Positions 2,221 through 19,043 are shown, numbered from the stretch's first letter. The stretch is DNA of 32,000 bases from Candidatus Saccharimonadota bacterium (GCA_001761425.1 CP012986.1:1050001-1082000), one strand, 5' to 3'. Notes: a model not told the origin generated them from the sequence alone. A program made the numbers and translations.

Positions 2221-3144
2221 TTACCAGTCTTCCATGTCCATCTCGTCCATATCATCCTGGGAAACACTGGCATCGGTCTCGATACCTCTCTCCTGTTTGA
2301 TCTCCTGGACAAGACCTGTCAGATCCCTGACATTGTCCACCAGAGATGGAAGAACCTGCTGGAAGGCCTTTTCCAGGCCTCCGATCCTTGATTCATAGTC
2401 ATCGATGTGCTGTTCGATCTCGTCCATTTTCTCTATAAACTGCTGTTGGTCCTCGTCATCTCTGACTTCCAGATCGTGTACTCTCTGCTCCAGATCCTCA
2501 AGCTCATCTTCTATAGTATCTAGCTCCATGTAAACGTTCTGGAACTCGGTTTTAACTCTCTGGAAGTTCTCGGCTACAATAGTTTCGATTAACTCCTCTA
2601 CTGCAGGGTCAACTTCTCCTGATCCTCCGCCTGCGGAATTCTCCTGTCCCTGCTGCTGGATAGGTTGCTGAACCTGCTGTTGCTGTGTCTGCTGAGGCTG
2701 TTGCTGCATACCCTGATCCTGCTGAAAGGCCTGATTATTGTTCTGAAAGTTTTGCTGCTGATTCTGCTGTTGCTGAGACTGGTTATTGTTCTGTTCGTAT
2801 CCTTGGTCCATCGGGCTTACCGCCTCCTGTTCCTGATCTGAACTGTACTGCGTAAGTGGTTGAGGCCCGTCATCCTGCTGGCCTCCTGTTGCAGAGCTTG
2901 TTACTGCGTTGTTCATCGCTCTCTGTATTTCCTGTTGGGAGTACTGTCCCTGGAGTTCCTGCATTATATCTTCGTCTGAGTATCCCTGCTGGGACATGTT
3001 CTTTACTGTGCGTTCCAGACTTCCACCGGATAGCACACTGTTGTTTTCCGAACGGCCTGACTGCTGTTGCTGATTTGCTCCTAGCGAACCTCCTCCAGAA
3101 CCGTCTTCATCGTCCTTCATTCTTCCAAACAGTTTGAACTCCAT
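2221..3144 (-). CDS. Q/N-rich low-complexity protein with acidic C-terminal coiled coil
   Basis: 307 aa ORF. GGTGAGG lies about 13 nt upstream of the ATG. Residues ~113-168 are almost pure Q/N (QNNNQSQQQQNQQQNFQNNNQAFQQDQGMQQQPQQTQQQQVQQPIQQQGQ). The C-terminal ~120 aa have heptad-like acidic repeats (ELDTIEDELEDLEQRVHDLE...). No enzymatic motif recognised. Confidence 0.7.
   Translation of the reverse strand: MEFKLFGRMKDDEDGSGGGSLGANQQQQSGRSENNSVLSGGSLERTVKNMSQQGYSDEDIMQELQGQYSQQEIQRAMNNAVTSSATGGQQDDGPQPLTQYSSDQEQEAVSPMDQGYEQNNNQSQQQQNQQQNFQNNNQAFQQDQGMQQQPQQTQQQQVQQPIQQQGQENSAGGGSGEVDPAVEELIETIVAENFQRVKTEFQNVYMELDTIEDELEDLEQRVHDLEVRDDEDQQQFIEKMDEIEQHIDDYESRIGGLEKAFQQVLPSLVDNVRDLTGLVQEIKQERGIETDASVSQDDMDEMDMEDW
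2641..2808 (-). repeat. CAG/CAA (plus strand CTG/TTG) trinucleotide-rich low-complexity tract encoding the Q/N domain
   Basis: Direct reading shows ctgctgctgg...ctgctgttgctgtgtctgctgaggctgttgctgc...ttgctgctgattctgctgttgctg. Confidence 0.8.
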
Positions 3145-3197
3145 AAAGTTTCTACCTCACCTTCCTATCGAAACTGTAGGTTTTCGAAAACATATTG

Positions 3198-3629
3198 TTA
3201 TCTTTCCTCTTCTTGCTTTTTTATCTTTCTGTCGACCATTTTTTCGATTTCCTGCTTGCTCGGACCTGTATTTTCCTGTAACATCTCTTTGGCCTCTTTT
3301 TTTGTGACGAAAGAGGAGTGAATCGGGTTCATGAGATCCATGTAGTTCTCGATCTCCTCGATCTCCTGAGATGTGACGAACTTTCTCTTCTCTCTGTTTA
3401 TCTCTTTGATATCTACTTCCATGTTGGCGACTCTATCTCTAAGATCGCTCATATCATCGTTCAGGTCCTGAAGCTCGCTGTTGATATCTTTTGTCTTATC
3501 GAGGAGAGTATCATCCAGAGTATTGACCCTGGCGTTCATGTTCCTGATCTTCTCCTCAAGGTCTCTAACCCTCCTATTGAAGTCGTTCACCCTGTCAACG
3601 AGCTTATTTACAACTTGTTGGTCCGCCAT
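3198..3629 (-). CDS. coiled-coil protein (143 aa), unknown function; first gene of the unit transcribed divergently from the pilus ATPase
   Basis: The ORF has a continuous heptad-like charged pattern (VNDFNRRVRDLEEKIRNMNARVNTLDDTLLDKTKDINSELQDLNDDMSDLRDRVANMEVDIKEI). Its start lies 33 bp from the ATPase start. No TM segment or signal peptide. Confidence 0.65.
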   Translation of the reverse strand: MADQQVVNKLVDRVNDFNRRVRDLEEKIRNMNARVNTLDDTLLDKTKDINSELQDLNDDMSDLRDRVANMEVDIKEINREKRKFVTSQEIEEIENYMDLMNPIHSSFVTKKEAKEMLQENTGPSKQEIEKMVDRKIKKQEEER

Positions 3630-3662: not shown

Positions 3663-5954
3663 ATGCTGGGTGTAAAGAAAGAGATGGTCGATAGAGGTCA
3701 GGGAGATCAGGGTGTATTCGAATACGAATATGATGAAGAGACATCAACCGTAAGAGTCAACACACTCGGCTCAATGTACGGAGCAAGCATAGAGGACTAC
3801 CCAGAAGTCATGGCCCGTGTCATAAACATCCTACAGGAGGTACCCAACGCAGAATCCGTTATACTAGCTGAATCAAGAGAATACGAATACGGAGAGGACC
3901 AGGTAAAGCTCCTAAGAGAAATAGCCAACGCTATACAGGAAATCTCCCGCCAGGGATACATCTCACAGGACGTCAAGACAGAAAAATGCGACCAGATCTA
4001 CAGCGAACACCTGCCAGAAGTCCAGAAAATGGTTTTCAACAAACTCCGAATGGACCCTGTAGGAGCATACGTACAGATCAAAAGAAAGGAACGCCACCTC
4101 AGACAGAAGATGGAAGATGGCTACCCACAGCAACAGAGATGCTGTAAATACTTTCTTCAGGACGTGGTCAAACCTGTCAAAGAAAGAATAGAACAATGTA
4201 AATTTATCCAGCAAGCCCAAGACCAGATCACAGGCCACCACGTCGGAGAAAGAGAGATCTACAGAGAATACTTCCACCCTCTGGTAAGGCCTAACTTCAT
4301 GCTTACCAAGTTCATGTCCCTTCCTCCAGAAAGAGGAGAGGAGATGGAACGCTACGAAATGGATAACATAGACGCAGAAGTCACAGTATACGATGTTCCT
4401 CACAAGACAAGGCCTGTCTACCACATCGATCCACCGGAATTCAATCTTTCAGAAGAAAAATACAACATTCTGGACGCAGCGAGACGTTTTATGGCTTCAC
4501 ACGATCCTCAGGAAGGAGAGTTCGCGGAGCCTGACAAGATGCGTGATGTCTTCCAAAACATTGGACGCGATATGCTGAGAGATGTCGCAAACCAGATGGG
4601 GGTAAGACTGGAAAACGATGAGATGGAACAGCTTGCAAATATACTGAACAGATACACTTCAGGCCTTGGAGTACTGGAACTTTTACTCTCCGATCCGAAG
4701 ATCCAGGACGTCTACATCAACTCCCCGATCGGTGACTCGCCTATCTTCATCTCACATCAGGACTACGAAGAATGTGAGACTAACCTGATACCCACGAAAG
4801 AAGAGGCAGAGTCATGGGCTACACGTTTCAGGATCCAGTCAGGAAGGCCTCTAGATGAAGCGAATCCGGTACTGGACACAGAGACTGAGGTTGAAGGAGG
4901 TAGAGCTCGTGTAGCTGTTATACAGGAAAATCTTTCGCCTGAAGGCCTTGCATTCGCTTTTCGTAGACATCGTTCACGTGCCTGGACTCTGCCTCTGTTC
5001 ATCAACAATGGGATGCTTTCGCCGCTTGCAGCAGCTTTGATATCGTTTATTGTGGATGGTAACCGTTCTGTCCTGTTTGCAGGTACAAGAGGCGCAGGTA
5101 AGTCATCGCTTCTGTCTGCTTCGATGCTCGAGATCATGAAGAGCCACAGAATTGTAACTGTAGAAGATACCCTGGAGTTGCCTGTGCCCCAGATGAATGA
5201 TCTTGGTTACAATATTGAAAGGATGAAGTCCCGTTCTGTTATTACACAGGTGGAAAACGAGATGGGAGCGGATGACGCGATCCGTACCTCTCTCAGATTG
5301 GGTGACTCTGCCCTTGTCATTGGAGAGGTTCGTTCCGAAGAAGCCCAGGCCCTTTACGAGGCAATGCGTGTTGGAGCCGTTGCTAACTTCGTCGGAGGTA
5401 CTATCCACGGCGAAGACGCTTACTCTGTATTCGACCGTGTTGTCAACGACCTGGGAGTTCCTCGTACCTCCTTCAAGGCGACAGATATTGTTGTACAGGT
5501 TAACAAGATTGAAAGTCCTGGAGGTATGGAAACATACCGTCGTGTAACCGGTATCACCGAAGTTCGCAAGGAATGGGAAGACGACCCGCAGGAGGAAAAT
5601 GCTTTCGTGGACCTGATGCGGTACGACAGCAATAAAGACAAGCTTGTGCCGACAGATACTCTGATCAACGGAGAATCTCTCATACTCGGCAGGATCGCCG
5701 AAAACATCAAGGAATGGAAGAACAACTGGGAGGCAGTCTGGAACAATATCCAGTTGAGAAAAGACACAAAAAAGGCGATAGTCGATAAATACAAAGAAAC
5801 AGGAAATGATGAACTGCTTGAAGCAGAATTCGCAGTTAAGGCAAACCAGCAATTCCACATCATAGCTGAAAAAGTCAACGAAGAATACGGGGAACAGGAT
5901 AGAGAAAGGATATACAACAGATGGACGGAATGGTTGGATCAACAGGTGAAGTAA
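3663..5954 (+). CDS. type IV pilus/archaellum-family secretion ATPase (FlaI/PilB/GspE/VirB11 superfamily) with a long N-terminal region
   Basis: 763 aa. Walker A 'FAGTRGAGKSSLLSA' (nt ~5082-5105), Asp box 'IVTVEDTLEL', Walker B 'SALVIGEVRSEEAQA' and His box 'GGTIHGED' appear in the canonical order of secretion ATPases. It is followed immediately by a polytopic platform gene. Confidence 0.9.
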   Translation: MLGVKKEMVDRGQGDQGVFEYEYDEETSTVRVNTLGSMYGASIEDYPEVMARVINILQEVPNAESVILAESREYEYGEDQVKLLREIANAIQEISRQGYISQDVKTEKCDQIYSEHLPEVQKMVFNKLRMDPVGAYVQIKRKERHLRQKMEDGYPQQQRCCKYFLQDVVKPVKERIEQCKFIQQAQDQITGHHVGEREIYREYFHPLVRPNFMLTKFMSLPPERGEEMERYEMDNIDAEVTVYDVPHKTRPVYHIDPPEFNLSEEKYNILDAARRFMASHDPQEGEFAEPDKMRDVFQNIGRDMLRDVANQMGVRLENDEMEQLANILNRYTSGLGVLELLLSDPKIQDVYINSPIGDSPIFISHQDYEECETNLIPTKEEAESWATRFRIQSGRPLDEANPVLDTETEVEGGRARVAVIQENLSPEGLAFAFRRHRSRAWTLPLFINNGMLSPLAAALISFIVDGNRSVLFAGTRGAGKSSLLSASMLEIMKSHRIVTVEDTLELPVPQMNDLGYNIERMKSRSVITQVENEMGADDAIRTSLRLGDSALVIGEVRSEEAQALYEAMRVGAVANFVGGTIHGEDAYSVFDRVVNDLGVPRTSFKATDIVVQVNKIESPGGMETYRRVTGITEVRKEWEDDPQEENAFVDLMRYDSNKDKLVPTDTLINGESLILGRIAENIKEWKNNWEAVWNNIQLRKDTKKAIVDKYKETGNDELLEAEFAVKANQQFHIIAEKVNEEYGEQDRERIYNRWTEWLDQQVK

Positions 5955-8144
5955 ATGCCAGAAAACCCAGAAGATTCTAAAGGAGGCCTGAATGAAAAAG
6001 AAAAGGAAAGGCTTCAGGACGTAATAAACGAGATAAACGAAGACGTCCAGAGGCCTCCCTACGACACAAACGATAACAAAGAAGGTTATTCTCGACAGTA
6101 CAAAGAGTTCAGAAAGGAAGAAGAACAATCTCAAGATCTAACACAGTATGAAACTCTTTGCTACCGGATGGCAGGCCTATTTAATCTAAGTGCTGAAAAA
6201 AGCACCAAGAAAAAACTCCAGCCTTCCATAGATCTTCTCGACTGGGAGATCACTCCCGGCATGGTAGTGTCAGCAACGGCGGGAGTAGGCCTCTTTTCGT
6301 TCATGGCCTGGTTTGTGATCTTCATGCTGAACCTACTGGTCCTGCCTATTATCCCTGTTTCATTACTTGCTATAAGCGTCTTGGCGCCAGTAGGAGCTAC
6401 AGCTTATACGTTCTATCTCCCTATCTTTGCTGCAAAGAACAAGGTTATCCGCTCAAGTGGAGAGATGATACTTTCAATTCTGTACATGGTCATTTACATG
6501 CGTACATCAGCAAACCTGGAGGGAGCGATAAGGTTCGCTGCTCTCAACTTGAAAGGCCCTATCTCAGACGACTTAAAGGGTGTTCTATGGGATGTCGAGT
6601 CAGGTAAGTACAATGAGATCAACAAATCTCTTGAAAACTACACTCAGAAATGGAAGGACTTCAACGAGGATTACCTGGAGTCTCTCAACCTGCTCATAGC
6701 ATCACTGAACGAGCCGAACAAAAAAAGGAGGGACAGACTGATGCAGGATGCTATAGACAACATCCTGGACGGGACAAAGGAAAAGATGAAACACTACGCA
6801 CAGAACCTGGAGACTCCTGTAATGATAATAAACGCTGTCGGAGCCATGCTCCCGGTACTAGGCATGATAATGCTACCACTTATCTCAGCATTCATGGGAG
6901 GAGTCATAACACCTCTGCACCTTCTCATAATGTTCAATATAATGCTCCCGACCTTCCTCTGGATCTTTATGCAGAGAACACTTAGCTCAAGGCCTCCAAC
7001 AGTTTCTTCAAAGCCTTCAAAGAAAGGAAATCTGCCAGACAGAGGAAAATACACGATCAAAGCCATGGACCGGAAAATCTCCGTCCCTACATGGCCTATA
7101 GGCCTCGGAATCTTCTTTATCGTAGGACTCTACGGAATGGCCGGTTACCTTGTCTATCCTCACTTCTACCCTGTTGAAAATATCAATCCTGCTAATGTAC
7201 CAGCAATTTTCCTTGACGGTTCACAGCTCAATGCCTTCCCTATGCTCATGAGAAGCGTTTCAATAGTACTAGGTTTAGGCCTCGGCATAGGCGTGAGCAA
7301 GACTCTTGGTAACAAAGCACGACAGCAAGCAGAAGAAGAGATCCAGAAAATTGAACAGCAGTTCCCTAACGCCCTCTTCGAGCTAGGAAACAATATTTCA
7401 GGAGGAACACCGATAGAACTTGCCTTACAGGACGCTGGACAATCGACAAAAGACCTGGAGATTTCCAACCTGTTTGTTGAGGCCTCTAATAACATCAAAA
7501 ACATGGGTATGACGTTTGAGCAGTCTATCTTTGATGAAGATTACGGTGCTTTGAAGCATTATCCTAGCCAGACTATTGAGACTGTTATGCGTGCTATACT
7601 GTCTTCTTCAAACAAAGGTACAAAGATGGCTTCCACTGCGATGATGACAATTTCGCGGTATCTAGAGAACATCCATGACACCCAGGAACAGCTTAACGAC
7701 CTGATGGAAGATACTACCACTACCATTCAGATGCTTGCATACATGCTGGCTCCGGTGATCTCCGGTGTCGCAGTAGGAATGTCCCAGACCATCATCTCAG
7801 CACTTTACTCACTTGGAGAATCTTTCAGCTCCACACAGCAGAATCTTCCTGATGGAGGAGGCGGAGCAGGAGGAGGCCTCGGCGGTACCGGTATACTTGA
7901 TAACCTGCAGTCCGCTATACCGCCAGAGATGCTTCAGTTCGTAGTTGGAGCATATCTAATCCAGCTACTTTATATACTAGGAACGTTTTACACCAAGATA
8001 ACGCAGGGAGAGGACAAAACCTACAAGAATATGTTCATCGGAAAGATAATGATGTCAGGCCTGTTCTTCTACACAATGACAGTGGTAATCATCAGTCTGA
8101 TGTTCGGAAGCCTCGTAGGAAGTGTAGGATCTAACCTGGGATAG
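5955..8144 (+). CDS. FlaJ/TadC/PilC-like polytopic membrane platform protein
   Basis: 729 aa. ATG directly follows the ATPase stop, with AGGTGA at 5944-5949. An acidic cytoplasmic N-terminus is followed by two blocks of TM helices separated by soluble segments. The family call rests on topology and its obligatory position next to the ATPase, not on a signature motif. Confidence 0.72.
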   Translation: MPENPEDSKGGLNEKEKERLQDVINEINEDVQRPPYDTNDNKEGYSRQYKEFRKEEEQSQDLTQYETLCYRMAGLFNLSAEKSTKKKLQPSIDLLDWEITPGMVVSATAGVGLFSFMAWFVIFMLNLLVLPIIPVSLLAISVLAPVGATAYTFYLPIFAAKNKVIRSSGEMILSILYMVIYMRTSANLEGAIRFAALNLKGPISDDLKGVLWDVESGKYNEINKSLENYTQKWKDFNEDYLESLNLLIASLNEPNKKRRDRLMQDAIDNILDGTKEKMKHYAQNLETPVMIINAVGAMLPVLGMIMLPLISAFMGGVITPLHLLIMFNIMLPTFLWIFMQRTLSSRPPTVSSKPSKKGNLPDRGKYTIKAMDRKISVPTWPIGLGIFFIVGLYGMAGYLVYPHFYPVENINPANVPAIFLDGSQLNAFPMLMRSVSIVLGLGLGIGVSKTLGNKARQQAEEEIQKIEQQFPNALFELGNNISGGTPIELALQDAGQSTKDLEISNLFVEASNNIKNMGMTFEQSIFDEDYGALKHYPSQTIETVMRAILSSSNKGTKMASTAMMTISRYLENIHDTQEQLNDLMEDTTTTIQMLAYMLAPVISGVAVGMSQTIISALYSLGESFSSTQQNLPDGGGGAGGGLGGTGILDNLQSAIPPEMLQFVVGAYLIQLLYILGTFYTKITQGEDKTYKNMFIGKIMMSGLFFYTMTVVIISLMFGSLVGSVGSNLG

Positions 8145-8148
8145 AAAG

Positions 8149-8328
8149 ATGAACGACTGGATACTCGAAAAGATAGCGGACGAATGGAGCAAAGGAGGAA
8201 TCACAGCCAGGAAACTGGTCCTGATAGTCATCGGTGTATCCGTAACTGCAATAGTCATAATGACCATAAGAAGCGGGATAGAAAGCGCCTACACTGAAGG
8301 CCTCGAGAACGCACTGGAGAACCATTAA
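8149..8328 (+). CDS. small (59 aa) pilin-like/single-pass protein, below the ORF-track cut-off
   Basis: ATG lies 4 nt after the platform gene stop. Translation is MNDWILEKIADEWSKGGITARKLVLIVIGVSVTAIVIMTIRSGIESAYTEGLENALENH, with KGG followed by a ~20-aa hydrophobic helix. Confidence 0.45.
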   Translation: MNDWILEKIADEWSKGGITARKLVLIVIGVSVTAIVIMTIRSGIESAYTEGLENALENH

Positions 8329-8355
8329 AAACAATCGAGAACAAGTTGGTTATCA

Positions 8356-9462: not shown

Positions 9463-9527
9463 AAAAACATGTCAGAAACTCTAAAAACAATTACTAACAG
9501 CAGAAAAGGCCTTCCAGGTGCTTTACC

Positions 9528-12035
9528 TTGAGTTCGAAAGGTATGGGCATCGGCGGGATACTGAAGCTTACACTGGCCCTGATGACCGCCTCACTTTTTA
9601 TCTCCGTTTCTACCGTAGGCGATCTTGCAGAACAGATAGAAGACCAGATGAAGAAGATCCAGAACGCTACAGACTATACCGTGGAAGTAAATGACGTTGA
9701 GACGCTTTCTCAGGCCTCGAAATTCGTAAGACAGAGAGCCGGAAACGATGGTTGTAAAGAAGAAAATGATGGCGCGGTGGATAACTTCAATACTGTGCCC
9801 CAGCAGAATGATGAGGGAGGTTATCCCGCTCTAAGCGATTCTTATCTAGGCAGATATCCTAACTGTCTGGGCACCGCTTCTACTCTGGTGAGAGGCACAG
9901 GTGTTGTTGACAGTGCACAGTCCCAGCTTTACGAGGAAGGACAGGATATGGAGGGAATCTATTCGAGGGTGAGGTTCGAGGTAACTGAGCCTATCGCGAT
10001 AGAGACTTCCGAGGAGTCGGGAAGTCCAAATACCTGGCTTGAGGACAGGATAGTCGGCGTCTCAAAACAGGGATTTACTGAAAACATCATGAACCATGAA
10101 GAATGCCTCACTCATGGGGAAAATAATAAACCAGATTACTTTGCAGCCTATCTGGGCATGGGAGATCACTATGTAATGTACTTCCAGCCTGAACAGGCAA
10201 GCAAGGAACCATACAGAGCAGATAAATTTATGCAGGAGTTTGCCGACAGACTCAAAGACAGAGCTTACTGCCATCCAGAAGGTGAACTCTACGAGTTCCA
10301 GGAGATCGTCATTTCCGAATTTGACCAACATCCTGTTACCAGTGCGACCAGAAGACTGGAGAACAAAATCGTACTATGTCCTGGAGACAGAGGTTATATC
10401 CAGATGAACAAACACACCCCAGTAAGTGGAGCAGAGGTTGGAGAAACCTGGGCGGGTACATCAGCCAACTTCCCTCATATACAGATAGAGAATCTTGGAA
10501 CCAGTACCAACAGCACCTGTCTGCCAGCGGAGATGGAGCCGGCCGCAGTCTTCGAGGAAGTAGAAAACATCGAAAGAATCGAGCTTCCGAACGAGATGGA
10601 TGATCAGCTGGCAGCAATGGTGCCTGACAAGATCGAAAACGCCTACGAAGGATTCATAGAAGACGAATGGGAGGACAGCTACGCAGACAAACGCCTTGAA
10701 TGGCTTGAAGATCAGGCCTCTGCAGCAGCAGGATATATAGCAAGCGGTGTAGAGACGGTCGCAGATAGTATTAGCGATATCGGAGATACTCTCACAGACC
10801 TTATAGGCCTTGATGACGGTCCGGATGACGTGGCCGAGTTCCTGGAAGAGGAAGGTATAGACCCGATCGAAGACATGTTCAGTACTGCAGTAGATGCTGT
10901 AGCGGAGGCATTAGACGGTCAGATGAAGGATTCGCTCCATATAGAGTTGAGCTTTACGAACCAGCACGTGGATATGAATGATGATGCATTCCCTGCAGAC
11001 TTCAGAGGAGGCTTCAGAATACTCTTCTGGGAAGGAGGCGACGATGAAGAAGTAAACGGAAAATTCGAGATAGAGCCTGCTGGAGGCCTCTACGATGAGG
11101 ATGTTCCTCAGGGAGTAGAGGGTGCAGGAGAACTTGATGCACTACAGGCAGGATGGCTCGACGGAAACGGCGGAATCGGCGAACTGGGATGTTATGTGAA
11201 AGCAGAATTACTGATGGAGCAGAAGAGAGATAGTGATATGGATTATCCTGAAAGATCTGAACAGGTCTGGGACATATACATCGGAGATCTGGAGGATGCT
11301 GACAGTTCTTCAAGCACGAAATCCGACTGCAGCGGCAGAGACGGAAGGATAGACAATGAAAGAGCAGGTATTGCATGGGGAGGCCTCTCCACACTTGGAA
11401 GTCTTGACGTAGAGGCTAAGAATTACTACCCGGATGAGGAAAAACTCGAGGTCACAGCTACCGCTTCTCCCAACGACGAAGGAGATGGTAGCCTAGATGG
11501 CGGAAGACTGGAGCTAGGAAGAAATATCAATTACGAGTTCCAGATGAATGAGTTCGCGAACTGCGGAGACGATTCCTGTAGTTTCACAACAAACTTCTCA
11601 GGTATAGCTTCAGATACTACACCAGAAATAGAGGCCAGATTCCAGAGGAACGACGAAACTCAGACCGAGACCATCAATCCTGAACTCTCGGAGTTCTACC
11701 CTGCTGAAGATATACTTGGTCCTGAAGAATGGAGCTGGGATACAGCCTACAACTCCACTACAGGCCTTTACAACGTGACAGTTAGCTTCGGAGATGAACC
11801 GGATGAAGGAAGAAACACTGACCTTGAAAGCGGAACTATGGAAGTAATAAACATCAGCGGGTCAACGGACGAAACTGTAAGAAACGTGGACTGTGACAGC
11901 TCTGAATGGTACACTGAATGCGTCACAGACCTCAACGAGATAGCCCCAGCAGCAGGAGGAGAACTGGAACTCAACACCACAATCTCTATGGACGGAGCAA
12001 TGCTCTGGGACTCAAGAACCCTCACACCGCCCTGA
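9528..12035 (+). CDS. giant pilin-like surface protein (835 aa) with a class III signal-peptide-like N-terminus; paralog of 12317-14068
   Basis: TTG start is supported by AGGTG (9516-9520) 7 nt upstream and by the paralog's N-terminus. 'MSSKG|MGIGGILKLTLALMTASLFISV' is followed by a very acidic, Cys-containing extracellular region with many N-x-S/T sequons. Confidence 0.8.
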   Translation: MSSKGMGIGGILKLTLALMTASLFISVSTVGDLAEQIEDQMKKIQNATDYTVEVNDVETLSQASKFVRQRAGNDGCKEENDGAVDNFNTVPQQNDEGGYPALSDSYLGRYPNCLGTASTLVRGTGVVDSAQSQLYEEGQDMEGIYSRVRFEVTEPIAIETSEESGSPNTWLEDRIVGVSKQGFTENIMNHEECLTHGENNKPDYFAAYLGMGDHYVMYFQPEQASKEPYRADKFMQEFADRLKDRAYCHPEGELYEFQEIVISEFDQHPVTSATRRLENKIVLCPGDRGYIQMNKHTPVSGAEVGETWAGTSANFPHIQIENLGTSTNSTCLPAEMEPAAVFEEVENIERIELPNEMDDQLAAMVPDKIENAYEGFIEDEWEDSYADKRLEWLEDQASAAAGYIASGVETVADSISDIGDTLTDLIGLDDGPDDVAEFLEEEGIDPIEDMFSTAVDAVAEALDGQMKDSLHIELSFTNQHVDMNDDAFPADFRGGFRILFWEGGDDEEVNGKFEIEPAGGLYDEDVPQGVEGAGELDALQAGWLDGNGGIGELGCYVKAELLMEQKRDSDMDYPERSEQVWDIYIGDLEDADSSSSTKSDCSGRDGRIDNERAGIAWGGLSTLGSLDVEAKNYYPDEEKLEVTATASPNDEGDGSLDGGRLELGRNINYEFQMNEFANCGDDSCSFTTNFSGIASDTTPEIEARFQRNDETQTETINPELSEFYPAEDILGPEEWSWDTAYNSTTGLYNVTVSFGDEPDEGRNTDLESGTMEVINISGSTDETVRNVDCDSSEWYTECVTDLNEIAPAAGGELELNTTISMDGAMLWDSRTLTPP

Positions 12036-12110
12036 AAGGCCTTGAAGGCAGCGGTAGAAAACACTTAAATTAGAGAAAAGCGTAATGAATATTCAGAGAA
12101 GGATTACAAG

Positions 12111-12323
12111 GTGATTTCTTCGAACTGGAAAAAGTCAAAGGGACAGGGCGGTATGCCTGTCAAGATCATAGTAGGCCTTCTAATCGCAATTATAATCGGC
12201 GTATTCATGCTTATGTTCCTCCTACCTACGATCAGGGCACAGGAACAGGCAGCTAGCTGTACAGGTATCCTGAGAAGTCTGGGAACTATACTGGCGGACA
12301 TGACCGGTGTATCACTATGCTGA
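12111..12323 (+). CDS. small pilin-like protein (70 aa)
   Basis: GTG start, with ATG 12153 as an alternative. 'KSKGQ|GGMPVKIIVGLLIAIIIGVFMLMFLL' matches the [KR]G[Q] plus hydrophobic-helix pattern of archaeal class III signal peptides. It overlaps the next gene by 7 nt. Confidence 0.6.
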   Translation: MISSNWKKSKGQGGMPVKIIVGLLIAIIIGVFMLMFLLPTIRAQEQAASCTGILRSLGTILADMTGVSLC

Positions 12324-14068
12324 AGACGAGGAAAGGTATCGGTACCGGAACGATAATGAAGCTGGTTCTCGCTCTGATGACTGCCTCACTTTTCATTGGA
12401 GCAGGTACAGTAGGAGACCTTGGATCAGCTTTAGGAGAGGGATTTTCCAGCTTGGGAGAGAGCACAGACTACAGAATTGACCTAGGAGATAATGGAGCAG
12501 AAAAGCTATCCCAAGCAGCTAGATTTGTGAGGATGAGAGCTGGCAATGATGGATGTGCTGAAGATTCCAACTCAGGCCCTTATTCCAGTGTACCGAGTTA
12601 CATAGAGGACGAAGGTTTTTCTGCACTCAGAGATAGCTACATAGGAGAATATCCTACATGTGAGTCCTCGACATCTACCCTTTCAAGAGGTATACAGGGA
12701 GGAATTCAGGAACTGGGACAGGATCAGGAAGGAATATATTCCAGAGTTGCTTTTGAGGTTAAGGAAGAGTTTACTATAACTTCTAACGGAGACACTTGGC
12801 TTGAAGGTGCAGGAGATGACAGCAAGGGAATAAGAGCCGTCGCAGAAGGATCACTAGAATCAAACACTCTTGATAGCTGTGGCGTGGATGCCTTGGATCG
12901 AGCAATTCAGACCGGAGCTGCAGGAGCAGTCCTAGGGGCCAGTACAGGAATAGGGGTAGGAGCGGTTGGAGGAGCAACGATAGGTTTCGTATCTGGAGGT
13001 GTTGGTAATGCAATAGCTGGAGCGGAATTCGTTGGGACAGATGATAAATATGTAATATTTGTTAGACCCGACCAGATGGATCAGAGAACAAACGGCTGGA
13101 TTAACGACGCTGAAAGAGCTAACGGGGACAGTTTCGGATATGGAAACAGATTATACTGCCATGGATTGGGTGATGAAATCAATCTAGATGGACTTCTTAG
13201 TGAAGAACATTTAACCAGATCCCCACTAAGAGCCGCCTATATAGAGTATTACGGTAGTGATGTGCGTTTCCAGTTCTGCCCCGGAGATGAAGGATATATT
13301 CAGATGAACAAAGGAAAGCCTCAGAACGATGCTGAAGCAGGAGAAGACTTACTTGGAGGTGCTCACAAGTTCCCATTTATCGTCATCACTGATAAAGGAG
13401 ACAACTGTGGGGATACGAGCGCTAATGTAGAGGAAAACGTGGCAGACGATGTCAGTCCAACAGGAAACATGTTCTTTGTAGCGATAGACAGCAGTAGCAG
13501 TTACGTTGACTCCAATCCAAACTCCTGGAGTCTGCATGACGACAGTGAAGGCGCAAACGTTGATGGAGCCGTGAGCGAAGGAGGTGCGACAGACGACATT
13601 GAAGCACCTTATGACAACCTTTGCAGAGTAGGTCTGCTTGAAGAAGACGGTAATATCGGAGATGATGGCGATGGCTATGTCGATTATGTAAAGGGAACTG
13701 TTATAGAGAAAGACGGTACTTTCCCTGAGTTAGGAAGCAGTTCAATTCAGTATCGTGCAGAAGAAGTCGCTGTAGAAGAGGAAGGAGGTAATCCAGTAAA
13801 TGATCCTGAAAACACCTATCACGTATACCAGCATCTTGTTAACGACGGATTTGATGGACAGAGCATTAGTGGCGACTACTCTTACCTGCAAGGAGCACAG
13901 TCACCTCACAACCTTGAGCTTAAAGGAGATATGCTCTGTGCGAACACAGCAGGCTTTTCATACTCCAAATGGGTCATGTGTGATCCATCTGCGCCTACAA
14001 AGGAAATCACCGCAGACGGAACCACATACGAATGTAACGAAGGAGAAGGTGACTGGAGAATACAATGA
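12317..14068 (+). CDS. giant pilin-like surface protein (583 aa); paralog of 9528-12035
   Basis: 'MLKTRKG|IGTGTIMKLVLALMTASLFIGA'. Blocks shared with the 835-aa protein include 'FVR.RAGNDGC', 'DSY.G.YP.C', 'EGIYSRV.FEV', 'TWLE', 'CPGD.GYIQMNK' and 'FP.I.I'. It has an internal Gly/Ala-rich insertion and a divergent acidic C-terminal half. Confidence 0.8.
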   Translation: MLKTRKGIGTGTIMKLVLALMTASLFIGAGTVGDLGSALGEGFSSLGESTDYRIDLGDNGAEKLSQAARFVRMRAGNDGCAEDSNSGPYSSVPSYIEDEGFSALRDSYIGEYPTCESSTSTLSRGIQGGIQELGQDQEGIYSRVAFEVKEEFTITSNGDTWLEGAGDDSKGIRAVAEGSLESNTLDSCGVDALDRAIQTGAAGAVLGASTGIGVGAVGGATIGFVSGGVGNAIAGAEFVGTDDKYVIFVRPDQMDQRTNGWINDAERANGDSFGYGNRLYCHGLGDEINLDGLLSEEHLTRSPLRAAYIEYYGSDVRFQFCPGDEGYIQMNKGKPQNDAEAGEDLLGGAHKFPFIVITDKGDNCGDTSANVEENVADDVSPTGNMFFVAIDSSSSYVDSNPNSWSLHDDSEGANVDGAVSEGGATDDIEAPYDNLCRVGLLEEDGNIGDDGDGYVDYVKGTVIEKDGTFPELGSSSIQYRAEEVAVEEEGGNPVNDPENTYHVYQHLVNDGFDGQSISGDYSYLQGAQSPHNLELKGDMLCANTAGFSYSKWVMCDPSAPTKEITADGTTYECNEGEGDWRIQ

Positions 14069-14310
14069 GACTAGTAAAAACCCTGAAATCATCTCTAGAG
14101 AAGAATATTAAAACAGTAAAAAATGTCACAAAATCTATGAAAACAATCGGCAGGACGTTCAAAGGACAGAACTTTTCGATCAAAACCATGGCACTGATAG
14201 TCCTGGGAATAATGGTGGTTGTACTGGTCTACGGAGCCTTCAGCGGATGGTTCGACAACGTTGTGAACAACTTCACCGGGAATATAAACTACCCACAACC
14301 GAGAAGTTAG
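14065..14310 (+). CDS. pilin-like protein (81 aa)
   Basis: ATGA start/stop overlap with the previous gene. '...GRTFKGQ|NFSIKTMALIVLGIMVVVLVYGAF'. An internal ATG at 14137 would give a more typical short leader. Confidence 0.6.
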   Translation: MRLVKTLKSSLEKNIKTVKNVTKSMKTIGRTFKGQNFSIKTMALIVLGIMVVVLVYGAFSGWFDNVVNNFTGNINYPQPRS

Positions 14311-14323
14311 AGGAGGAAAAAGT

Positions 14324-14500
14324 ATGATAGAAGACAGGAAAGGTATAAACTCGACGATCGCCCTCATTATTACGATAGCGGTAGGCCTCATGGTTGTGGT
14401 GATAATAATCTCGATACTTAATACAAACACCGGGTTCCTGGAGAGCTTTGCAAAGGATGGAGTTGACGTGAGCCTTTGGGGCGGGGGCGGAGGATCATGA
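14324..14500 (+). CDS. small pilin-like protein (58 aa), below the ORF-track cut-off
   Basis: Strong SD GAGGAGG lies 7 nt upstream. 'MIEDRKG|INSTIALIITIAVGLMVVVIIISIL...', ending in GGGGGS. Its stop overlaps the next ATG (ATGA). Confidence 0.55.
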   Translation: MIEDRKGINSTIALIITIAVGLMVVVIIISILNTNTGFLESFAKDGVDVSLWGGGGGS

Positions 14501-14730
14501 GGACTTCGATCCAGGCCTTGATAGCGCTTGTATTGGTTCTCATGGTTGTTGTAGGGATTTATGCAGCTGGTTCAGGCGTCTTCGGCGCTGCCGGTTCGAA
14601 CATCGAAAATGAGGGAAACGAATCCGGTAACCGTCTGGAGTGTATATTCGCTAACCCTGAAAGCTCGGACAGTGCCTGTAGAACCCAGTCAGGCCTGGAG
14701 GTGAATGAGAGAGATGTTTTCGAGGCTTAG
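14497..14730 (+). CDS. small pilin-like/N-terminal-helix protein (77 aa)
   Basis: The ORF track starts at TTG 14476, but GGAGGATC immediately precedes ATG 14497, which also overlaps the upstream stop. 'MRTSIQALIALVLVLMVVVGIYAAG'; two Cys in the C-terminal part. Confidence 0.55.
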   Translation: MRTSIQALIALVLVLMVVVGIYAAGSGVFGAAGSNIENEGNESGNRLECIFANPESSDSACRTQSGLEVNERDVFEA

Positions 14731-15199
14731 AAAAGGTACCAACTCCGGTATGCCAATAATCGCAGTTGTAGCTGTAATAGGTTCCCTGGCCGGTATGGGA
14801 GTGATTTTCCAGGTTATCGGCGGGGTAGGGACTGAAACCGGACAGGATCATGATAGAAGGGAATTAAATGACATTGGCTCTGCAATCGAGAACAAATGCA
14901 CCGATGTGGCAGGGAATAGTGACACATCTTCAGTTACTTCTATAGACGTAAGCGTTGATTTAAAGACAGACAGTGAACTAGGATCGGCATCTGGAGAAAG
15001 TGGAGAAGGAGAATACATCAGTGAACTGGAGCTAAGTTTCTCTGACAGTACGGAAACATATGATCTTCCTTCAGATAGCTGTGATATCGAATGGATGAAC
15101 GATACTCTTGGAACCGGACAGTATCAGTTCACTGTATCTCAGGATGGCTACAGCGACAGTGATAATGATGTACCTATCATAAGGGTGGAAGCTAACTGA
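14714..15199 (+). CDS. pilin-like protein (161 aa)
   Basis: GGAGGTGA (14697-14704) abuts ATG 14705, so ATG 14714 has the better spacing of 9 nt. 'MFSRLRKG|TNSGMPIIAVVAVIGSLAGMGVIF'; acidic C-terminal domain. Confidence 0.65.
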   Translation: MFSRLRKGTNSGMPIIAVVAVIGSLAGMGVIFQVIGGVGTETGQDHDRRELNDIGSAIENKCTDVAGNSDTSSVTSIDVSVDLKTDSELGSASGESGEGEYISELELSFSDSTETYDLPSDSCDIEWMNDTLGTGQYQFTVSQDGYSDSDNDVPIIRVEAN

Positions 15200-15603
15200 T
15201 GAAGAATAAGGGCCAGACCACCATTCCCTTCACAGTGATTGAAGCTGCAACCACAATGCTGATGATCCTGATGATAGTCTACGGGAACCAGGCACACACA
15301 AACGACTTTGTCAAGCAGGAAACGCTCAATCTCCAAGTTGATCGTGTGACAAATGCAGCACTGGCCCTGAACTCAATGCATCAGGGATACGTTGAGATAG
15401 ATATGTCCGGATACGAGTTCAAATACGGGAACGGTAACGTAACAATGAGATACAATGACAAGCAATATACTTCTGAGATAGATCAGAACATGATCAATTA
15501 CAATGATATCAACGGGCCTTCAGAGTTTGAACAGGTAAACGGCACCATGTGCTTGCGAAAAACAGAGGCAAACCATCTAGATATTGCAGCGAGTGAATGC
15601 TAG
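15199..15603 (+). CDS. pilin-like protein (134 aa)
   Basis: TGATG stop/start overlap. 'MKNKGQ|TTIPFTVIEAATTMLMILMIVYG' is a textbook class III signal-peptide-like N-terminus. Confidence 0.7.
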   Translation: MKNKGQTTIPFTVIEAATTMLMILMIVYGNQAHTNDFVKQETLNLQVDRVTNAALALNSMHQGYVEIDMSGYEFKYGNGNVTMRYNDKQYTSEIDQNMINYNDINGPSEFEQVNGTMCLRKTEANHLDIAASEC

Positions 15604-16107
15604 ATGGACCTCTACAACCTGGTGATGAAGATTCCGTACATACTGATGATCCTGGTAGGGATAACCTTCATCATACAGCTCTACGTAGGAGGCCTCAACA
15701 ACCTCTCCATAGATATAGACAACTACAACGAGGGAGAGTACAGAAGCACCATCGTGCTCGAGAATGCTCTTTCAGTTGAGGAAAACGCCACCGAAAACCT
15801 CGACTACAGTTACGATCACAGGAGAGGCGTCATACCAATAGAGTTCTTCACCCAGAAACTGGAGGATGTAGACAACGAACCAGGCTACAAGAAAAACGGA
15901 GATCACTGCTATATACCACGGGTCGGAGGCCTTGACGGCGAAAACTTTGCGTTCTATATCATTAACCTGGATGCTGATGACATGTCGCCAGGCCTCGAAT
16001 GCAGCAGTGATGAGTCAGGAGACAGGTTAAAAACTGTGTTCAGTCCTGTTCTTCTTGTCCAAGACGGTGACCCGGTGCCAGCGAGGTTGTATATCTATGA
16101 AAGATAG
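15604..16107 (+). CDS. N-terminally anchored surface protein (167 aa), pilus-operon member
   Basis: ATG directly follows the previous stop. 'MDLYNLVMKIPYILMILVGITFIIQLYVGG' is a hydrophobic helix without an obvious KG cleavage motif. Confidence 0.6.
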   Translation: MDLYNLVMKIPYILMILVGITFIIQLYVGGLNNLSIDIDNYNEGEYRSTIVLENALSVEENATENLDYSYDHRRGVIPIEFFTQKLEDVDNEPGYKKNGDHCYIPRVGGLDGENFAFYIINLDADDMSPGLECSSDESGDRLKTVFSPVLLVQDGDPVPARLYIYER

Positions 16108-16690
16108 AAAAGGCCAAGGAATAATTATCGAAGTCCTGGCATTCGCAATGTCAATGATGCTAGCTATAATTGTATTCTACGTTATGCTCAGCACCGGAGG
16201 AGTCACCGAACAGAAAGCCGAAGAGTCAATAAGCTATGAACTTGGAGAACTGAAGAAACGTTCAGCTATAAGCGCAACTATGAACGATCACATCTGGAGG
16301 ATTGACAGTGTAGACAAAGGCAAGTACGCTGAATGGCCAGCATACAAAGTAATCTCCCACTACCTGTCAACACCAGGCGATACAATGCACATATACGATG
16401 AAGAAATAGACATGGATGAAGCCGAAGAAGACTTACTGAACTACCTCGAACACAAGATGAACAAATACTGGCAGGAAGGACCCAACAACGTAGACTACCA
16501 ATTAGATGCTGTCTACGCTGAGGCCTCTTCAAGGCCTGAAAACCTGTCAGTCGGAACTTATGAGCCGACAGGCGAAGGAGGAAGGATATCATACCCTCTC
16601 AGCCTCACAGACGGAAGAGAAGCAGAAATAGGCCTCTGGACATCAAACACACAGAGCATTCAGACAGTAGGTGGTGCAGATCAGTCTTAA
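16097..16690 (+). CDS. pilin-like protein (197 aa)
   Basis: The track start (16055) is a non-ATG codon. ATG 16097 gives 'MKDRKGQ|GIIIEVLAFAMSMMLAIIVFYVML', a classical class III signal-peptide-like N-terminus. It overlaps the previous gene by 11 nt. Confidence 0.7.
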   Translation: MKDRKGQGIIIEVLAFAMSMMLAIIVFYVMLSTGGVTEQKAEESISYELGELKKRSAISATMNDHIWRIDSVDKGKYAEWPAYKVISHYLSTPGDTMHIYDEEIDMDEAEEDLLNYLEHKMNKYWQEGPNNVDYQLDAVYAEASSRPENLSVGTYEPTGEGGRISYPLSLTDGREAEIGLWTSNTQSIQTVGGADQS

Positions 16691-17999
16691 GAAAAAACTG
16701 AAGAAAGGCACATTCTCTGGAGTAATCCCGATGATGGGTATGTTCATCATGGCAGCACTCATGGCATTCCAGTCCGTACCGATAGGTCAAGCGGTAGGAA
16801 ACGAACTGACAGCCTCATTTTCAGATCTCAGCCGTATAGCAGAGACCAAATCCTACGGAGACCTCTACTTCTTCAACTTCGTCCCTAACGGCGCAGAACA
16901 CTCTCTAAACAATGTAAGTCACTCTCTCGCAAAGAACGGGGGCGACGTCTCCTGGAGCTACAACGACTTCGATGCTGAAAACGATATAAGGCCTGAAGTA
17001 GAGAGCAAGCTCAGCACTATAATCGGAGACAAACTCGAACCGATGACGGAAAACTACTTCAACGAAAAATACGGCGGTGTTTCACAGGGAAGCGGCTGCA
17101 CAATATACGAAATCAACTACACTACAATACCCCTGCCCGACTCAGATAATAACTACGTCCAAGGCGTTCAGAACAACCCTGAAGACATACCAATGATCGT
17201 CAGATCACAGGTCGAGACTAGCGGCTACTTCAACGTAGATGCTGCACCGATGGAGGTCGAATGCGCCAATGACCAGGGAGCCACAAAATACATCGGAGAC
17301 ACACAGACAGACTCAGATACCACTTCAACGACCTCTACAGGAGTAGGAACAGGAGGCCTTGGACTGGGAAGCTTTGGATTCGGAGGCCTCGGAATCGGGT
17401 TCTTACCAGGAGACTGGACCAGCGTAGGCTATACCAACAAAGTTGAAGCGACAGCAAACAGATTTCATGTACTGGCCAACAGGACGACATACATCTACAA
17501 GAGAGTCCATGACAACTGGGTAAACAACGTAGAAGAGGTTTCCAACACGGAAGAAGACGTGTGTGATCCCAGCGACAGCGACTGGCAGTCCGTCGAATCA
17601 GAAACGGTAAACGACGTGAACTCTGACGTAACAGACCAGTTCAACAACGTAGTCAACAGTGAAGTAGATATCGAAGGAGTCTCAGGACAGTTCGACCTAG
17701 AAACCTACGCCTTAAACTTCGACTATGACGACTACACTAAGAACTACCTTGGAGAAGCCAGTTACAGCACCAGCGACCACGAAGACTGTGACTGCGATAC
17801 CTGTTACGATAGTGACGGTGATCCTTACGACTGCAACTGCGATACAGAAAAAGATCTGACCGTCACAGTGACCCCAAACGCCTCGATAATGAGGTCAAAC
17901 ATCACCGACGACGATTTCAAAGTTAACACCGCTGAAGGATGGAAGAACCTTAAGTTCACCGTAGAAAACTACAATCACGACTTCCAGGACGACGACTGA
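16671..17999 (+). CDS. large pilin-like surface protein (442 aa) with a Gly-rich segment and a Cys/Asp-rich Ca-binding-like motif
   Basis: GTG start. 'KKLKKG|TFSGVIPMMGMFIMAALMAF'. Internal 'GVGTGGLGLGSFGFGGLGIGFLPG'. Near the C-terminus, 'CDCDTCYDSDGDPYDCNCD'. Last gene of the operon. Confidence 0.7.
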   Translation: MVQISLKKKLKKGTFSGVIPMMGMFIMAALMAFQSVPIGQAVGNELTASFSDLSRIAETKSYGDLYFFNFVPNGAEHSLNNVSHSLAKNGGDVSWSYNDFDAENDIRPEVESKLSTIIGDKLEPMTENYFNEKYGGVSQGSGCTIYEINYTTIPLPDSDNNYVQGVQNNPEDIPMIVRSQVETSGYFNVDAAPMEVECANDQGATKYIGDTQTDSDTTSTTSTGVGTGGLGLGSFGFGGLGIGFLPGDWTSVGYTNKVEATANRFHVLANRTTYIYKRVHDNWVNNVEEVSNTEEDVCDPSDSDWQSVESETVNDVNSDVTDQFNNVVNSEVDIEGVSGQFDLETYALNFDYDDYTKNYLGEASYSTSDHEDCDCDTCYDSDGDPYDCNCDTEKDLTVTVTPNASIMRSNITDDDFKVNTAEGWKNLKFTVENYNHDFQDDD

Positions 18000-18011
18000 A
18001 AGACTCTAACC

Positions 18012-18020
18012 TATAAAAAA
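18012..18020 (+). promoter_or_regulatory. TATA box upstream of the Alba gene
   Basis: TATAAAAAA lies 34 nt upstream of GTG 18055. A short leader carries AGTGAT (SD-like). Confidence 0.45.
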
Positions 18021-18054
18021 TTCGACGAAAAAAGCCTAGAATAAGTGATAACCA

Positions 18055-18342
18055 GTGCCCGAAGAACAAGAAGACGACAACACAGTATATGTCGGATCCA
18101 AACCAGCAATGAGCTACGTTCTAGCAGTAGTCACACAATTTAGCGAAGGACAAGACCTAGTGCACGTCAAAGCAAGAGGAAAAGCAATCAGCCGTGCAGT
18201 AGACGTCGCAGAAATCGTAAAAGACAGATTCGTCGAAGAGGCAACAGTCGACGACATCAGCATCGGAACCGATCAGATCGAGACCGATGAAGGCGACAAG
18301 ATCAACGTTTCCTCAATCCAGATAGACCTCGAAAAACCATAA
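18055..18342 (+). CDS. albA: Alba (Sso10b) chromatin/DNA-RNA-binding protein
   Basis: '[21 protein letters not shown]...[24 protein letters not shown]...[10 protein letters not shown]' matches the conserved Alba core. GTG 18055 is the only start after the in-frame stop at 18049. Confidence 0.9.
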
Positions 18343-18373
18343 ACAATTCGAGGCCTACCATCTTACTTCTTTA

Positions 18374-18378
18374 TTTTT
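18374..18378 (+). terminator. oligo-T tract after the Alba gene
   Basis: CTTTATTTTTCC lies about 30 nt after the stop. Confidence 0.35.
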
Positions 18379-18393
18379 CCCGAAGAGGAAGGA

Positions 18394-18401
18394 TTTTTAT
18401 A
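18394..18401 (+). promoter_or_regulatory. TATA box for the stand-alone pilin genes
   Basis: TTTTTATA lies 22 nt upstream of ATG 18424, the same geometry as other leaderless genes in this window. Confidence 0.5.
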
Positions 18402-18423
18402 CCATCAGAGAAATAATTGCTAT

Positions 18424-18753
18424 ATGACACAAAGAAAGGGCCTCTCACAGATCCTATACCTCATAATCGCAGCATCCGTACTGATGATGGTCGCACTATC
18501 ACTAATCTTCATGTTCAACGACTCAGTCAGCGGAAGCACAGGCGATACACAAGCATGCAATACAGCAGTAGAGACCCAGTGCTCAGTGGCAGGAGCAAAC
18601 AACATTCCCCCGCCCCCCAACTGTGTAACCGAAGACGGACAGGGTAATAAACAGCTCATTAACGGACTCAGCTATCAACATACGGGCGAGTTCGGAGGAA
18701 GTGGAGAAGATGCAAAGGTAATTGTGTGTCCAGGTAACTCAGCCAATAACTGA
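18424..18753 (+). CDS. pilin-like protein (109 aa), Cys-containing; candidate major subunit
   Basis: 'MTQRKG|LSQILYLIIAASVLMMVALSLIFMF' is class III signal-peptide-like. Four Cys and a PPPP turn lie in the short extracellular part. It has its own TATA box. Confidence 0.7.
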   Translation: MTQRKGLSQILYLIIAASVLMMVALSLIFMFNDSVSGSTGDTQACNTAVETQCSVAGANNIPPPPNCVTEDGQGNKQLINGLSYQHTGEFGGSGEDAKVIVCPGNSANN

Positions 18754-18761
18754 TGATATAA

Positions 18762-19043
18762 ATGGACAAGACCCTTGAGATCATAATCGCCGCAACAGTC
18801 ATCCTGCTTACAGCCGGACTGATAATGTTCATGGTCAGCGGTCAGAGCGGAGACTTCCAAAGCTGGCTGAACAACACCCAAGGCGACGCCGAATGCAGCC
18901 TCAAAAAGACACAATACGAGAATGCATGTGACTGCGGGTCGGACAATCCAGGTAATCAGGAAGCCCAAAACATCAAATCAAATGTCCAAAATCAGTGTGA
19001 CTGGACTGACCAAATAAACGACTGCGAAGCGGCCTGTAATTAA
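18762..19043 (+). CDS. Cys-rich pilin-like/N-terminal-helix protein (93 aa)
   Basis: 'MDKTLEIIIAATVILLTAGLIMFMVSGQ' is followed by seven Cys in 50 aa (ECSLKK...ACDCG...CDW...CEAACN). It starts 8 nt after the previous stop. Confidence 0.6.
   Translation: MDKTLEIIIAATVILLTAGLIMFMVSGQSGDFQSWLNNTQGDAECSLKKTQYENACDCGSDNPGNQEAQNIKSNVQNQCDWTDQINDCEAACN

Follow-up and report, generated by a model that had tools for sequence, protein, structure and literature searches.

Introduction

Some minor pilins are large or modular and act at the pilus tip, as do CofB and TcpB of type IVb pili and PilB and PilC of Streptococcus sanguinis, and in Sulfolobus the substrates of the bindosome (Bas) system, large globular sugar-binding proteins with a class III signal, are placed on the cell surface by a PilB/PilC-like pair. 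Here we analyze two adjacent genes, A and B, in a stretch of 32,000 nucleotides (CP012986.1, positions 1050001-1082000, assembly GCA_001761425.1; "the window" is this whole stretch, numbered from its first letter). The window encodes FEN1, NMD3, iPGM, and Alba, which mark it as archaeal chromosome, and it is part of a Nanohaloarchaeota (DPANN) genome, that of a very small, halophilic, parasitic archaeon. We read A and B as probable large modular minor-pilin-like adhesins of a conserved nanohaloarchaeal type IV pilus-like system, with a rough probability of 0.5. They resemble CofB/TcpB and PilB/PilC in having a short leader, a hydrophobic helix, and a conserved base with extra C-terminal modules (which bind targets in those proteins), and in being encoded within a pilus operon beside small pilins in one or a few copies per locus. 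They differ from solved pilins and adhesins in showing no sequence or Foldseek likeness to them and no Glu5, in a base of 290-330 amino acids (aa) with six cysteines where the canonical pilin domain has about 120 aa, and in belonging to an archaeon with a FlaI/TadA-like ATPase, unlike the CofB/TcpB and PilB/PilC systems.

Large class III-signal proteins encoded in archaeal type IV pilus loci are generally taken to be minor pilins or adhesins (Makarova, Koonin & Albers 2016, PMC4858521). A and B follow the same logic as the proteins described there (for example DUF2341, arCOG02911), being large proteins encoded beside an ATPase, a TadC, and many small pilins, with duplication, length variation, and conserved cysteines in common, but no family of Pfam or NCBIfam, DUF2341 included, matches their module, and neither DPANN nor Nanohaloarchaeota are mentioned in that paper. 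Cluster-2 DPANN carry conserved loci encoding a coiled-coil protein (CCP), CpaF, and TadC, proposed to mediate host interaction (Hamm et al., bioRxiv 10.1101/2023.02.24.529834), and an account of cultivated nanohaloarchaea mentions "archaella-like operons with up to 22 hypothetical proteins" (PMC10266531). The A/B locus is of the same kind as the CCP/CpaF/TadC loci, with two coiled-coil genes (the counterparts of the CCP genes), an ATPase gene, and a TadC-like gene upstream, and it agrees with the archaella-like operons too. The general reading of large class III-signal proteins as minor pilins or adhesins and the occurrence of the locus in DPANN are already known. The parts read of these two sources (10.1101/2023.02.24.529834, PMC10266531) cover the coiled-coil proteins, ATPase, and TadC and hold no account of a large module family, its shuffling, or its paralogues. 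What appears to be undescribed is a family without a counterpart in Pfam, NCBIfam, PHROGs, or the PDB, together with its near-exclusive occurrence in Nanohaloarchaeota, the constant place it takes in the locus, a disulfide whose cysteines co-vary, the shuffling of its C-terminal parts, and the A/B duplication.

Two paralogues share a cysteine-containing module

An earlier note on this DNA, made from the sequence alone, had placed two giant pilin-like proteins at 9528-14068. Both open reading frames (ORFs) are found there on the plus strand, though "giant" is too strong a word for proteins of 835 and 583 aa. Their parts are as follows.

9528..12035, +, gene A, 835 aa, TTG start; the long, lineage-specific paralogue
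9528..9626, +, A leader MSSKG and hydrophobic helix (aa 1-33); K-G, then M-G and a hydrophobic stretch of 18-24 aa
9663..10532, +, A conserved module (aa 46-335) with six Cys; from BLASTP against B, profile boundaries, and invariant columns
10533..12032, +, A-specific acidic C-terminal part (aa 336-835); seen only in eight A-type orthologues
12317..14068, +, gene B, 583 aa; module plus X domain, the typical family architecture
12317..12421, +, B leader MLKTRKG and hydrophobic helix (aa 1-35)
12446..13429, +, B conserved module (aa 44-371); from BLASTP, profile, and an AlphaFold 2 (AF2) core at high confidence
12881..13033, +, B insert, Gly/Ala-rich and nearly uncharged, with GxxxG repeats (aa 189-239)
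13430..14065, +, B C-terminal X domain (aa 372-583), Cys-rich and beta-rich; common to many family members

BLASTP aligned A 2-335 with B 4-372 at 127/386 identities (33%, E=1e-51), so that the similarity is not confined to the N-terminal helix and extends well past it. The prepilin-like N-terminal pattern that had been quoted is present in both proteins, as are the blocks FVR.RAGNDGC, DSY.G.YP.C, QD.EGIYSRV.FEV, TWLE, YCH, CPGD.GYIQMNK, and FP.I.I; only the block written as YV...P.Q needs correction, with four residues rather than three between YV and P. Beyond the module the two proteins are unrelated, as had been judged by eye: BLASTP found nothing below E ~1 between the C-terminal halves, hhalign of the two C-terminal alignments gave a probability of 0.4%, and the MAFFT alignment across A-type and B-type C-terminal regions is apparent only and without meaning. 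Both C-terminal parts are indeed strongly acidic, with D+E at 24.8% in A and 20.8% in B. The supposed richness in N-x-S/T sequons, and with it an argument for glycosylation, did not survive comparison with shuffled sequences (7 in A against a mean of 5.4, P=0.29; none in B, where 3.9 are expected). Hydropathy plots revealed no C-terminal hydrophobic segment or anchor in A (ending ...TLTPP) or B (ending ...DWRIQ). We rejected an S-layer or PGF-CTERM glycoprotein because this anchor is missing, the sequons are not enriched, and no S-layer family in Pfam or NCBIfam is matched.

The six cysteines of the module align between the paralogues (C76/C113/C193/C248/C284/C331 in A, C80/C115/C188/C281/C321/C364 in B; B numbering is used below). 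Among 67 aligned family members, C80, C115, and C321 are invariant, C364 is kept in 60, and C188 and C281 are present in 48 and 46, about 70% each. The last two come and go together, both being present in 46 members and both missing in 19, with only 2 mixed cases (Fisher p=9e-15); this is the pattern expected of a disulfide pair and supports one here. The earlier suggestion of disulfides or metal sites thus stands as to the conserved positions, and the co-variation speaks for its disulfide side. The six cysteines are likely to form three disulfides, with the four other than C188 and C281 presumably pairing as C80-C115 and C321-C364. R257 is invariant in the 67 members as well, and so is the G323-D324-x-G326 turn within the motif LCPGDxGYIQxNK.

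A nanohaloarchaeal family with shuffled C-terminal domains

Word-index homologue searching recovered only 18 relatives, eight of the long A type and ten of the short B type, and a second such search with alignment A3 added nothing. A search with the X domain of B alone came back empty and is uninformative, as it missed even P0010, which is almost identical to B along its full length. With a HMMER profile of the module, 116 cluster representatives (50% identity) came up, of which 97 reached E≤1e-10 and 40 reached E≤1e-30. In members at E≤1e-10 the module is always N-terminal, beginning at about residue 40-50 behind a hydrophobic N-terminus, and is followed by an extension that is usually 185-260 aa long and reaches about 800 aa. 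Most members are acidic (median pI 4.35). The A orthologues range from 826 to 941 aa at 50-96% identity, and the last domain of the A C-terminal part, about 155 aa, is repeated in a longer orthologue, P0007. The insert, some 50 aa located between C188 and G240 of B and not mentioned in the earlier note, is carried by the B clade and by a few members elsewhere, and is absent from A and most of the family.

All-against-all BLASTP sorted the C-terminal extensions into five arrangements: X, Y, X followed by Y, three copies of X, and the A type. The X domain, which is Cys-rich and the type found in B, has the consensus YGDxLC...W..C....C....W; the Y domain of about 184 aa occurs alone or in tandem behind X; three X copies are found in P0054 (1128 aa); and the A-type part of 500-620 aa is restricted to the eight A orthologues. 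The exchange can be seen between close relatives, since P0012, the positional orthologue of B in locus L002, has a module 58% identical to that of B with Y in place of X, in a locus whose ATPase is 96% identical. The architecture proposed earlier, a conserved N-terminal module fused to variable distal domains, is therefore borne out by the constant position of the module, the combinatorial C-termini, and the replacement of X by Y in L002.

When genome contigs were scanned with the module alignment, 11 loci were recovered, nine of them under the label Nanohaloarchaea or uncultured archaeon, with the complete genome CP046106.1 in this group. The other two are a Colwellia-binned contig and a locus of Halobium salinum, and a scan of viral contigs found no relatives. 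The family thus seems to be confined almost entirely to Nanohaloarchaeota. The Colwellia contig (L009, JBLGBK010000001.1, 129.6 kb, labelled as a Colwellia polaris metagenome-assembled genome) carries the full nanohaloarchaeal pilus-like locus with an ATPase 78% identical to that of the window, and as such it is almost certainly misbinned archaeal DNA. The Halobium copy (L008 9983-11719, strain YJ-8-S, on a 1.63-Mb contig) and a copy in L019 (1648-3372) are less acidic than the rest; the Halobium region has a guanine-cytosine content of about 49% and contains two Orc1/Cdc6 genes, a HerA-like ATPase, and an Mrr nuclease. Both copies have kept a convergent neighbor of 384-388 aa, with a twin-arginine translocation (TAT) signal in L008. 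These two copies may reflect symbiont-host transfer or carriage by a mobile element.

Most genomes have a single module gene of the B type, while the window, L002, L018, and L007 have two, and L001 has the long module gene only, with B absent. A neighbor-joining tree, rough and without support values, placed the A clade as sister to the B clade, which suggests duplication inside this lineage. B probably retains the ancestral, typical architecture, and A would be a lineage-specific duplicate with a new distal part of 500 aa.

Rates of evolution were compared between the window and L018, whose ATPases are 99.7% identical. Of the genes from the ATPase to the 442-aa pilin-like protein described below, A is the most diverged (96.2% amino-acid identity), and its ratio of nonsynonymous to synonymous substitution rates (dN/dS) is 0.30; the ATPase and platform genes have values of 0.02-0.04. 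The module of A evolves more slowly than its C-terminal part. The dN/dS check suggested earlier thus came out above the machinery genes and below 1, with no pairwise evidence of positive selection, and the rates of A suggest either relaxed constraint or diversifying selection at a subset of sites.

A and B lie in a conserved pilus-like locus

The genes around A and B, and the small ORFs among them, are as follows.

2221..3629, -, two divergently transcribed coiled-coil proteins, 307 aa (weak FlaC-like match) and 143 aa, upstream of the ATPase
3663..5954, +, secretion/assembly ATPase, FlaI/TadA/CpaF-like, 763 aa (Pfam T2SSE 1e-16)
5955..8144, +, polytopic membrane platform protein, TadC/FlaJ-like, 729 aa; several transmembrane segments, syntenic
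8149..8328, +, small pilin-like ORF, 59 aa; K-G and hydrophobic; orthologue called in L002 and L018
8356..9462, +, membrane protein, 368 aa, with 2-3 N-terminal transmembrane segments, between the platform gene and A; no family match (Pfam, NCBIfam)
12111..12323, +, small pilin-like ORF, 70 aa, KSKG/QGGMPVKIIVGLL..., between A and B; overlaps the B start by 7 nucleotides
14324-14500, +, small pilin-like ORF, 58 aa, within the row that follows; K-G and hydrophobic N-terminus
14065..18753, +, downstream pilin-like row of 81, 58, 84, 164, 134, 167, 211, and 442 aa, then Alba, then 109 aa; K/R-G and hydrophobic N-termini, syntenic across Nanohaloarchaeota

We used tblastn with all locus proteins of the window and found one arrangement across nanohaloarchaeal genomes and metagenome contigs: two membrane proteins, two coiled-coil proteins, the ATPase, the platform, the module protein, small pilins, five conserved mid-sized or large pilin-like proteins, and Alba. 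Identity across loci is 74-96% for the ATPase and 60-91% for the platform. Every syntenic locus has one or two module genes right after the platform gene, with only small ORFs or the 368-aa gene intervening, and the coiled-coil pair adjoins the ATPase in all loci. The ATPase matches the NCBIfam FlaI (3e-39) and TadA (1e-35) models far under the equivalog cut-offs of both, and the platform has a weak match to Pfam T2SSF (E=1.3e-4, 22.3 bits against a gathering threshold of 25.2).

The N-termini of A and B fit this context. Both carry a class III-type leader, MSSKG/M in A and MLKTRKG/I in B, with K at -2 and G at -1. K-G followed by [ILM][GA] and a hydrophobic stretch is present in 79/108 family members that start with Met, and several of the others read as internal-ATG calls because the upstream SKG codons of gene A are kept in L001 and L002, even where gene callers begin at an internal ATG. 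By Kyte-Doolittle hydropathy the hydrophobic segments span A 6-35 and B 8-36, with a Lys at +8 in both, and AF2 predicted a helix at B 10-29 with low confidence. Across the window, 16 of 158 ORFs of at least 45 aa have a [KR][GA] plus hydrophobic N-terminus; 12 of these, A and B included, lie on the plus strand within 8149-18753, and the remaining four look like spurious antisense ORFs. The pilin-like reading given earlier thus agrees with the placement of A and B downstream of the ATPase and platform genes, within a block of 12 ORFs with K/R-G and hydrophobic N-termini.

Identity between A and B stands at 69% in the helix, 30-46% in the module, and 12% in the linker. Of 30 helix residues 22 are identical, and 11 of those 22 use different codons, which indicates purifying selection in both paralogues rather than recent gene conversion; we therefore rejected gene conversion as the source of the near-identical helices. 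This conservation argues for a sequence-specific role, probably engagement with the same machinery or packing partners, and not for a generic membrane anchor.

Proteins with such an N-terminus could also remain uncleaved as signal-anchored parts of the machinery or envelope, like the FlaF/FlaG stator or alignment proteins, with the module contacting the S-layer or the platform. The fixed place after the platform gene in all syntenic loci and the conservation of the module across the family are consistent with such a part, and Gly at +2 and Lys at +8, counted from the putative cleavage site, set A and B apart as unusual among the pilin-like ORFs here. Swapped C-terminal domains, however, are not what one expects of a core machinery component, nor are a copy number that varies between one and two or a dN/dS 10-15 times that of the ATPase and platform, and the K-G motif is conserved although a plain anchor has no need of it. 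We consider this arrangement improbable.

Display on the surface in the manner of the bindosome would account for the same N-terminal features and locus context. The class III signal and the ATPase/platform pair would then place A and B at the surface, by way of a short pseudopilus or the helix anchor, where they would work as binding proteins or enzymes instead of building an extended pilus. A surface raft would accommodate large globular domains of 500-800 aa more easily than a filament would, the invariant polar residues R74, R143, R257, and D324 could make a binding site, and the ATPase gives a BasE match as well (E=8e-19, far under the cut-off of that model). Unlike the Bas substrates, A and B have no likeness to solute-binding proteins or to any enzyme family, no ABC transporter genes are present in the window, and the locus has at least five very small pilin-like genes (58-84 aa) besides a conserved mid-sized set, which is typical of a real filament with minor pilins. 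Bindosome-like display is unlikely in our view, though it deserves some weight, and we continue to favor minor-pilin-like adhesins.

Several genes of the locus were absent from the earlier note or have features of their own. The small ORFs of 59, 70, and 58 aa had not been listed there and are candidate Flp-like major pilins; orthologous genes of 70-77 aa for the 70-aa ORF are called in L018 and L002, with identity of 100% and 93%. The 442-aa protein (16671-17999, +), a large pilin-like protein with a KKG/T leader, eight Cys, and no known family, closes the pilin row of every nanohaloarchaeal locus, with 25-66% identity. The 368-aa membrane protein, which tblastn matched in L001, L002, and L018 only (the closest relatives), evolves fast, with 50-68% identity in relatives whose ATPase is 92-96% identical. 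In some relatives the ATPase is interrupted by an intein (L010 ~5173-6644; L014 1-910), seen as a tblastn gap of about 490 aa with a Pfam Intein_splicing match. The 307-aa coiled-coil protein (2221-3144, -) has a long Gln/Asn-rich low-complexity N-terminal half, a C-terminal coiled coil, and a weak FlaC_arch match. Outside the pilin row, a 340-aa protein (19040-20062, -) with a Tat/lipobox-like N-terminus (RRYVLQTLGALGTGGLAGC) is only 80.6% identical to its L018 orthologue (dS 0.90), while most neighboring genes are 96-100% identical, which suggests either a surface lipoprotein that is hypervariable among strains or a hot spot of recombination.

Predicted structure of the module

The earlier note had not recognized the module as any named domain, and neither did the databases: A and B had no consistent match in Pfam, NCBIfam, or PHROGs, and the 67 aligned members had none in Pfam. 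No known enzyme or S-layer domain was seen for the module in Pfam, NCBIfam, PHROGs, PDB sequences, or Foldseek searches of the PDB and BFVD. A sequence-profile search of the PDB gave a single, insignificant match, and Foldseek found nothing under E=0.5 for the B model against the PDB and BFVD or for the A-module model against the PDB. A PilY1 beta-propeller or DUF2341 tip adhesin was rejected, as it had no Pfam match in A, B, or the 67 members and no Foldseek match.

The AF2 model of the A module, built from 16 sequences, reached only a predicted local distance difference test (pLDDT) score of 58. With the 67-sequence alignment, B was modelled at a mean pLDDT of 77.8 and a predicted template modelling score of 0.66, with 240 residues at ≥90. 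Its module is mixed alpha/beta: residues 60-75 form a confident helix, and strands run at 144-177, 243-249, 317-332, and 351-359. The X domain of B is beta-rich, with pLDDT >90 over about the last 50 residues. Low confidence was restricted to residues 1-50, a loop at about 120-124, the Gly-rich insert (pLDDT ~40-46), the linker between the domains, and a few short X-domain loops.

Weak Foldseek matches to the ADP-ribosyltransferase (R-S-E toxin) fold were examined against the family alignment and this fold was rejected, since R74, an invariant residue, is part of helix 60-75 and the family does not conserve the S-T-S-like stretch. These matches recur in both libraries (E=2-3, probability 0.01-0.03) and would be in keeping with a host-directed effector, in which the module is a new enzyme or membrane-active domain, the GxxxG insert of the B clade is a membrane-inserting hairpin, and the pilus-like system serves for delivery. 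The insert, with 45-50 nearly uncharged residues and GxxxG repeats, lends itself to such a role, one family member has a weak Bacteriocin_IIc match (E=0.011), and cultivated nanohaloarchaea breach or lyse their hosts (10.1101/2023.02.24.529834). All structural and profile matches are insignificant, however, the ADP-ribosyltransferase motif test fails, and the insert is absent from A and most members and is not confidently modelled, so that we regard delivery of an effector as highly unlikely.

A bolder proposal, which we regard as improbable, is that the module is a new fold and the universal tip adaptor of the nanohaloarchaeal pilus, where it would present interchangeable host-recognition cassettes (X, Y, or A type) that decide to which haloarchaeon a nanohaloarchaeon attaches. 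The glycine-zipper-like insert of the B clade might then enter the host membrane upon contact and help to open a cytoplasmic bridge or entry site, and the Halobium copy, in a genomic island, might represent capture of the gene on the host side.

Proposed role and significance

If A and B are minor-pilin-like adhesins, a prepilin-type peptidase would cut the short basic leader after K-G, and the N-terminal helix would be handled by the adjacent ATPase and platform and would dock the protein among the small pilins that this operon encodes, possibly at the tip of a filament. The module of about 290-330 aa, with its three putative disulfides, would form a rigid base, and the interchangeable acidic C-terminal domains would face out and bind an external target, most likely the envelope of a haloarchaeal host.

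Several observations weigh against this reading. The 32-kb window contains no gene for an A24-family prepilin peptidase (PibD/FlaK/EppA), and Foldseek found no likeness of the module or the X domain to a known pilin or adhesin. For residues 1-50 of B the AF2 pLDDT is 45-62, which leaves the helix-on-sheet packing of a pilin undemonstrated. Positive selection was not shown either, as pairwise proportions of nonsynonymous to synonymous differences (pN/pS) were 0.16-0.46 in every partition and comparison. Lastly, the copies in L008 and L019 form a stand-alone subfamily outside any pilus locus, which means that the module is able to exist without adjacent machinery genes.

The module, having no counterpart in Pfam, NCBIfam, the PDB, or BFVD, is a reasonable target for structure determination. 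DPANN archaea, Nanohaloarchaeota among them, need to attach to specific hosts, and the family offers a testable candidate for host recognition: it is nearly restricted to one phylum, holds a fixed position in the locus, has an apparently extracellular, disulfide-bonded base, and carries outer domains that have been shuffled between close relatives. If A, B, and their relatives are indeed the host-binding subunits of this system, the type of C-terminal cassette should track host range.

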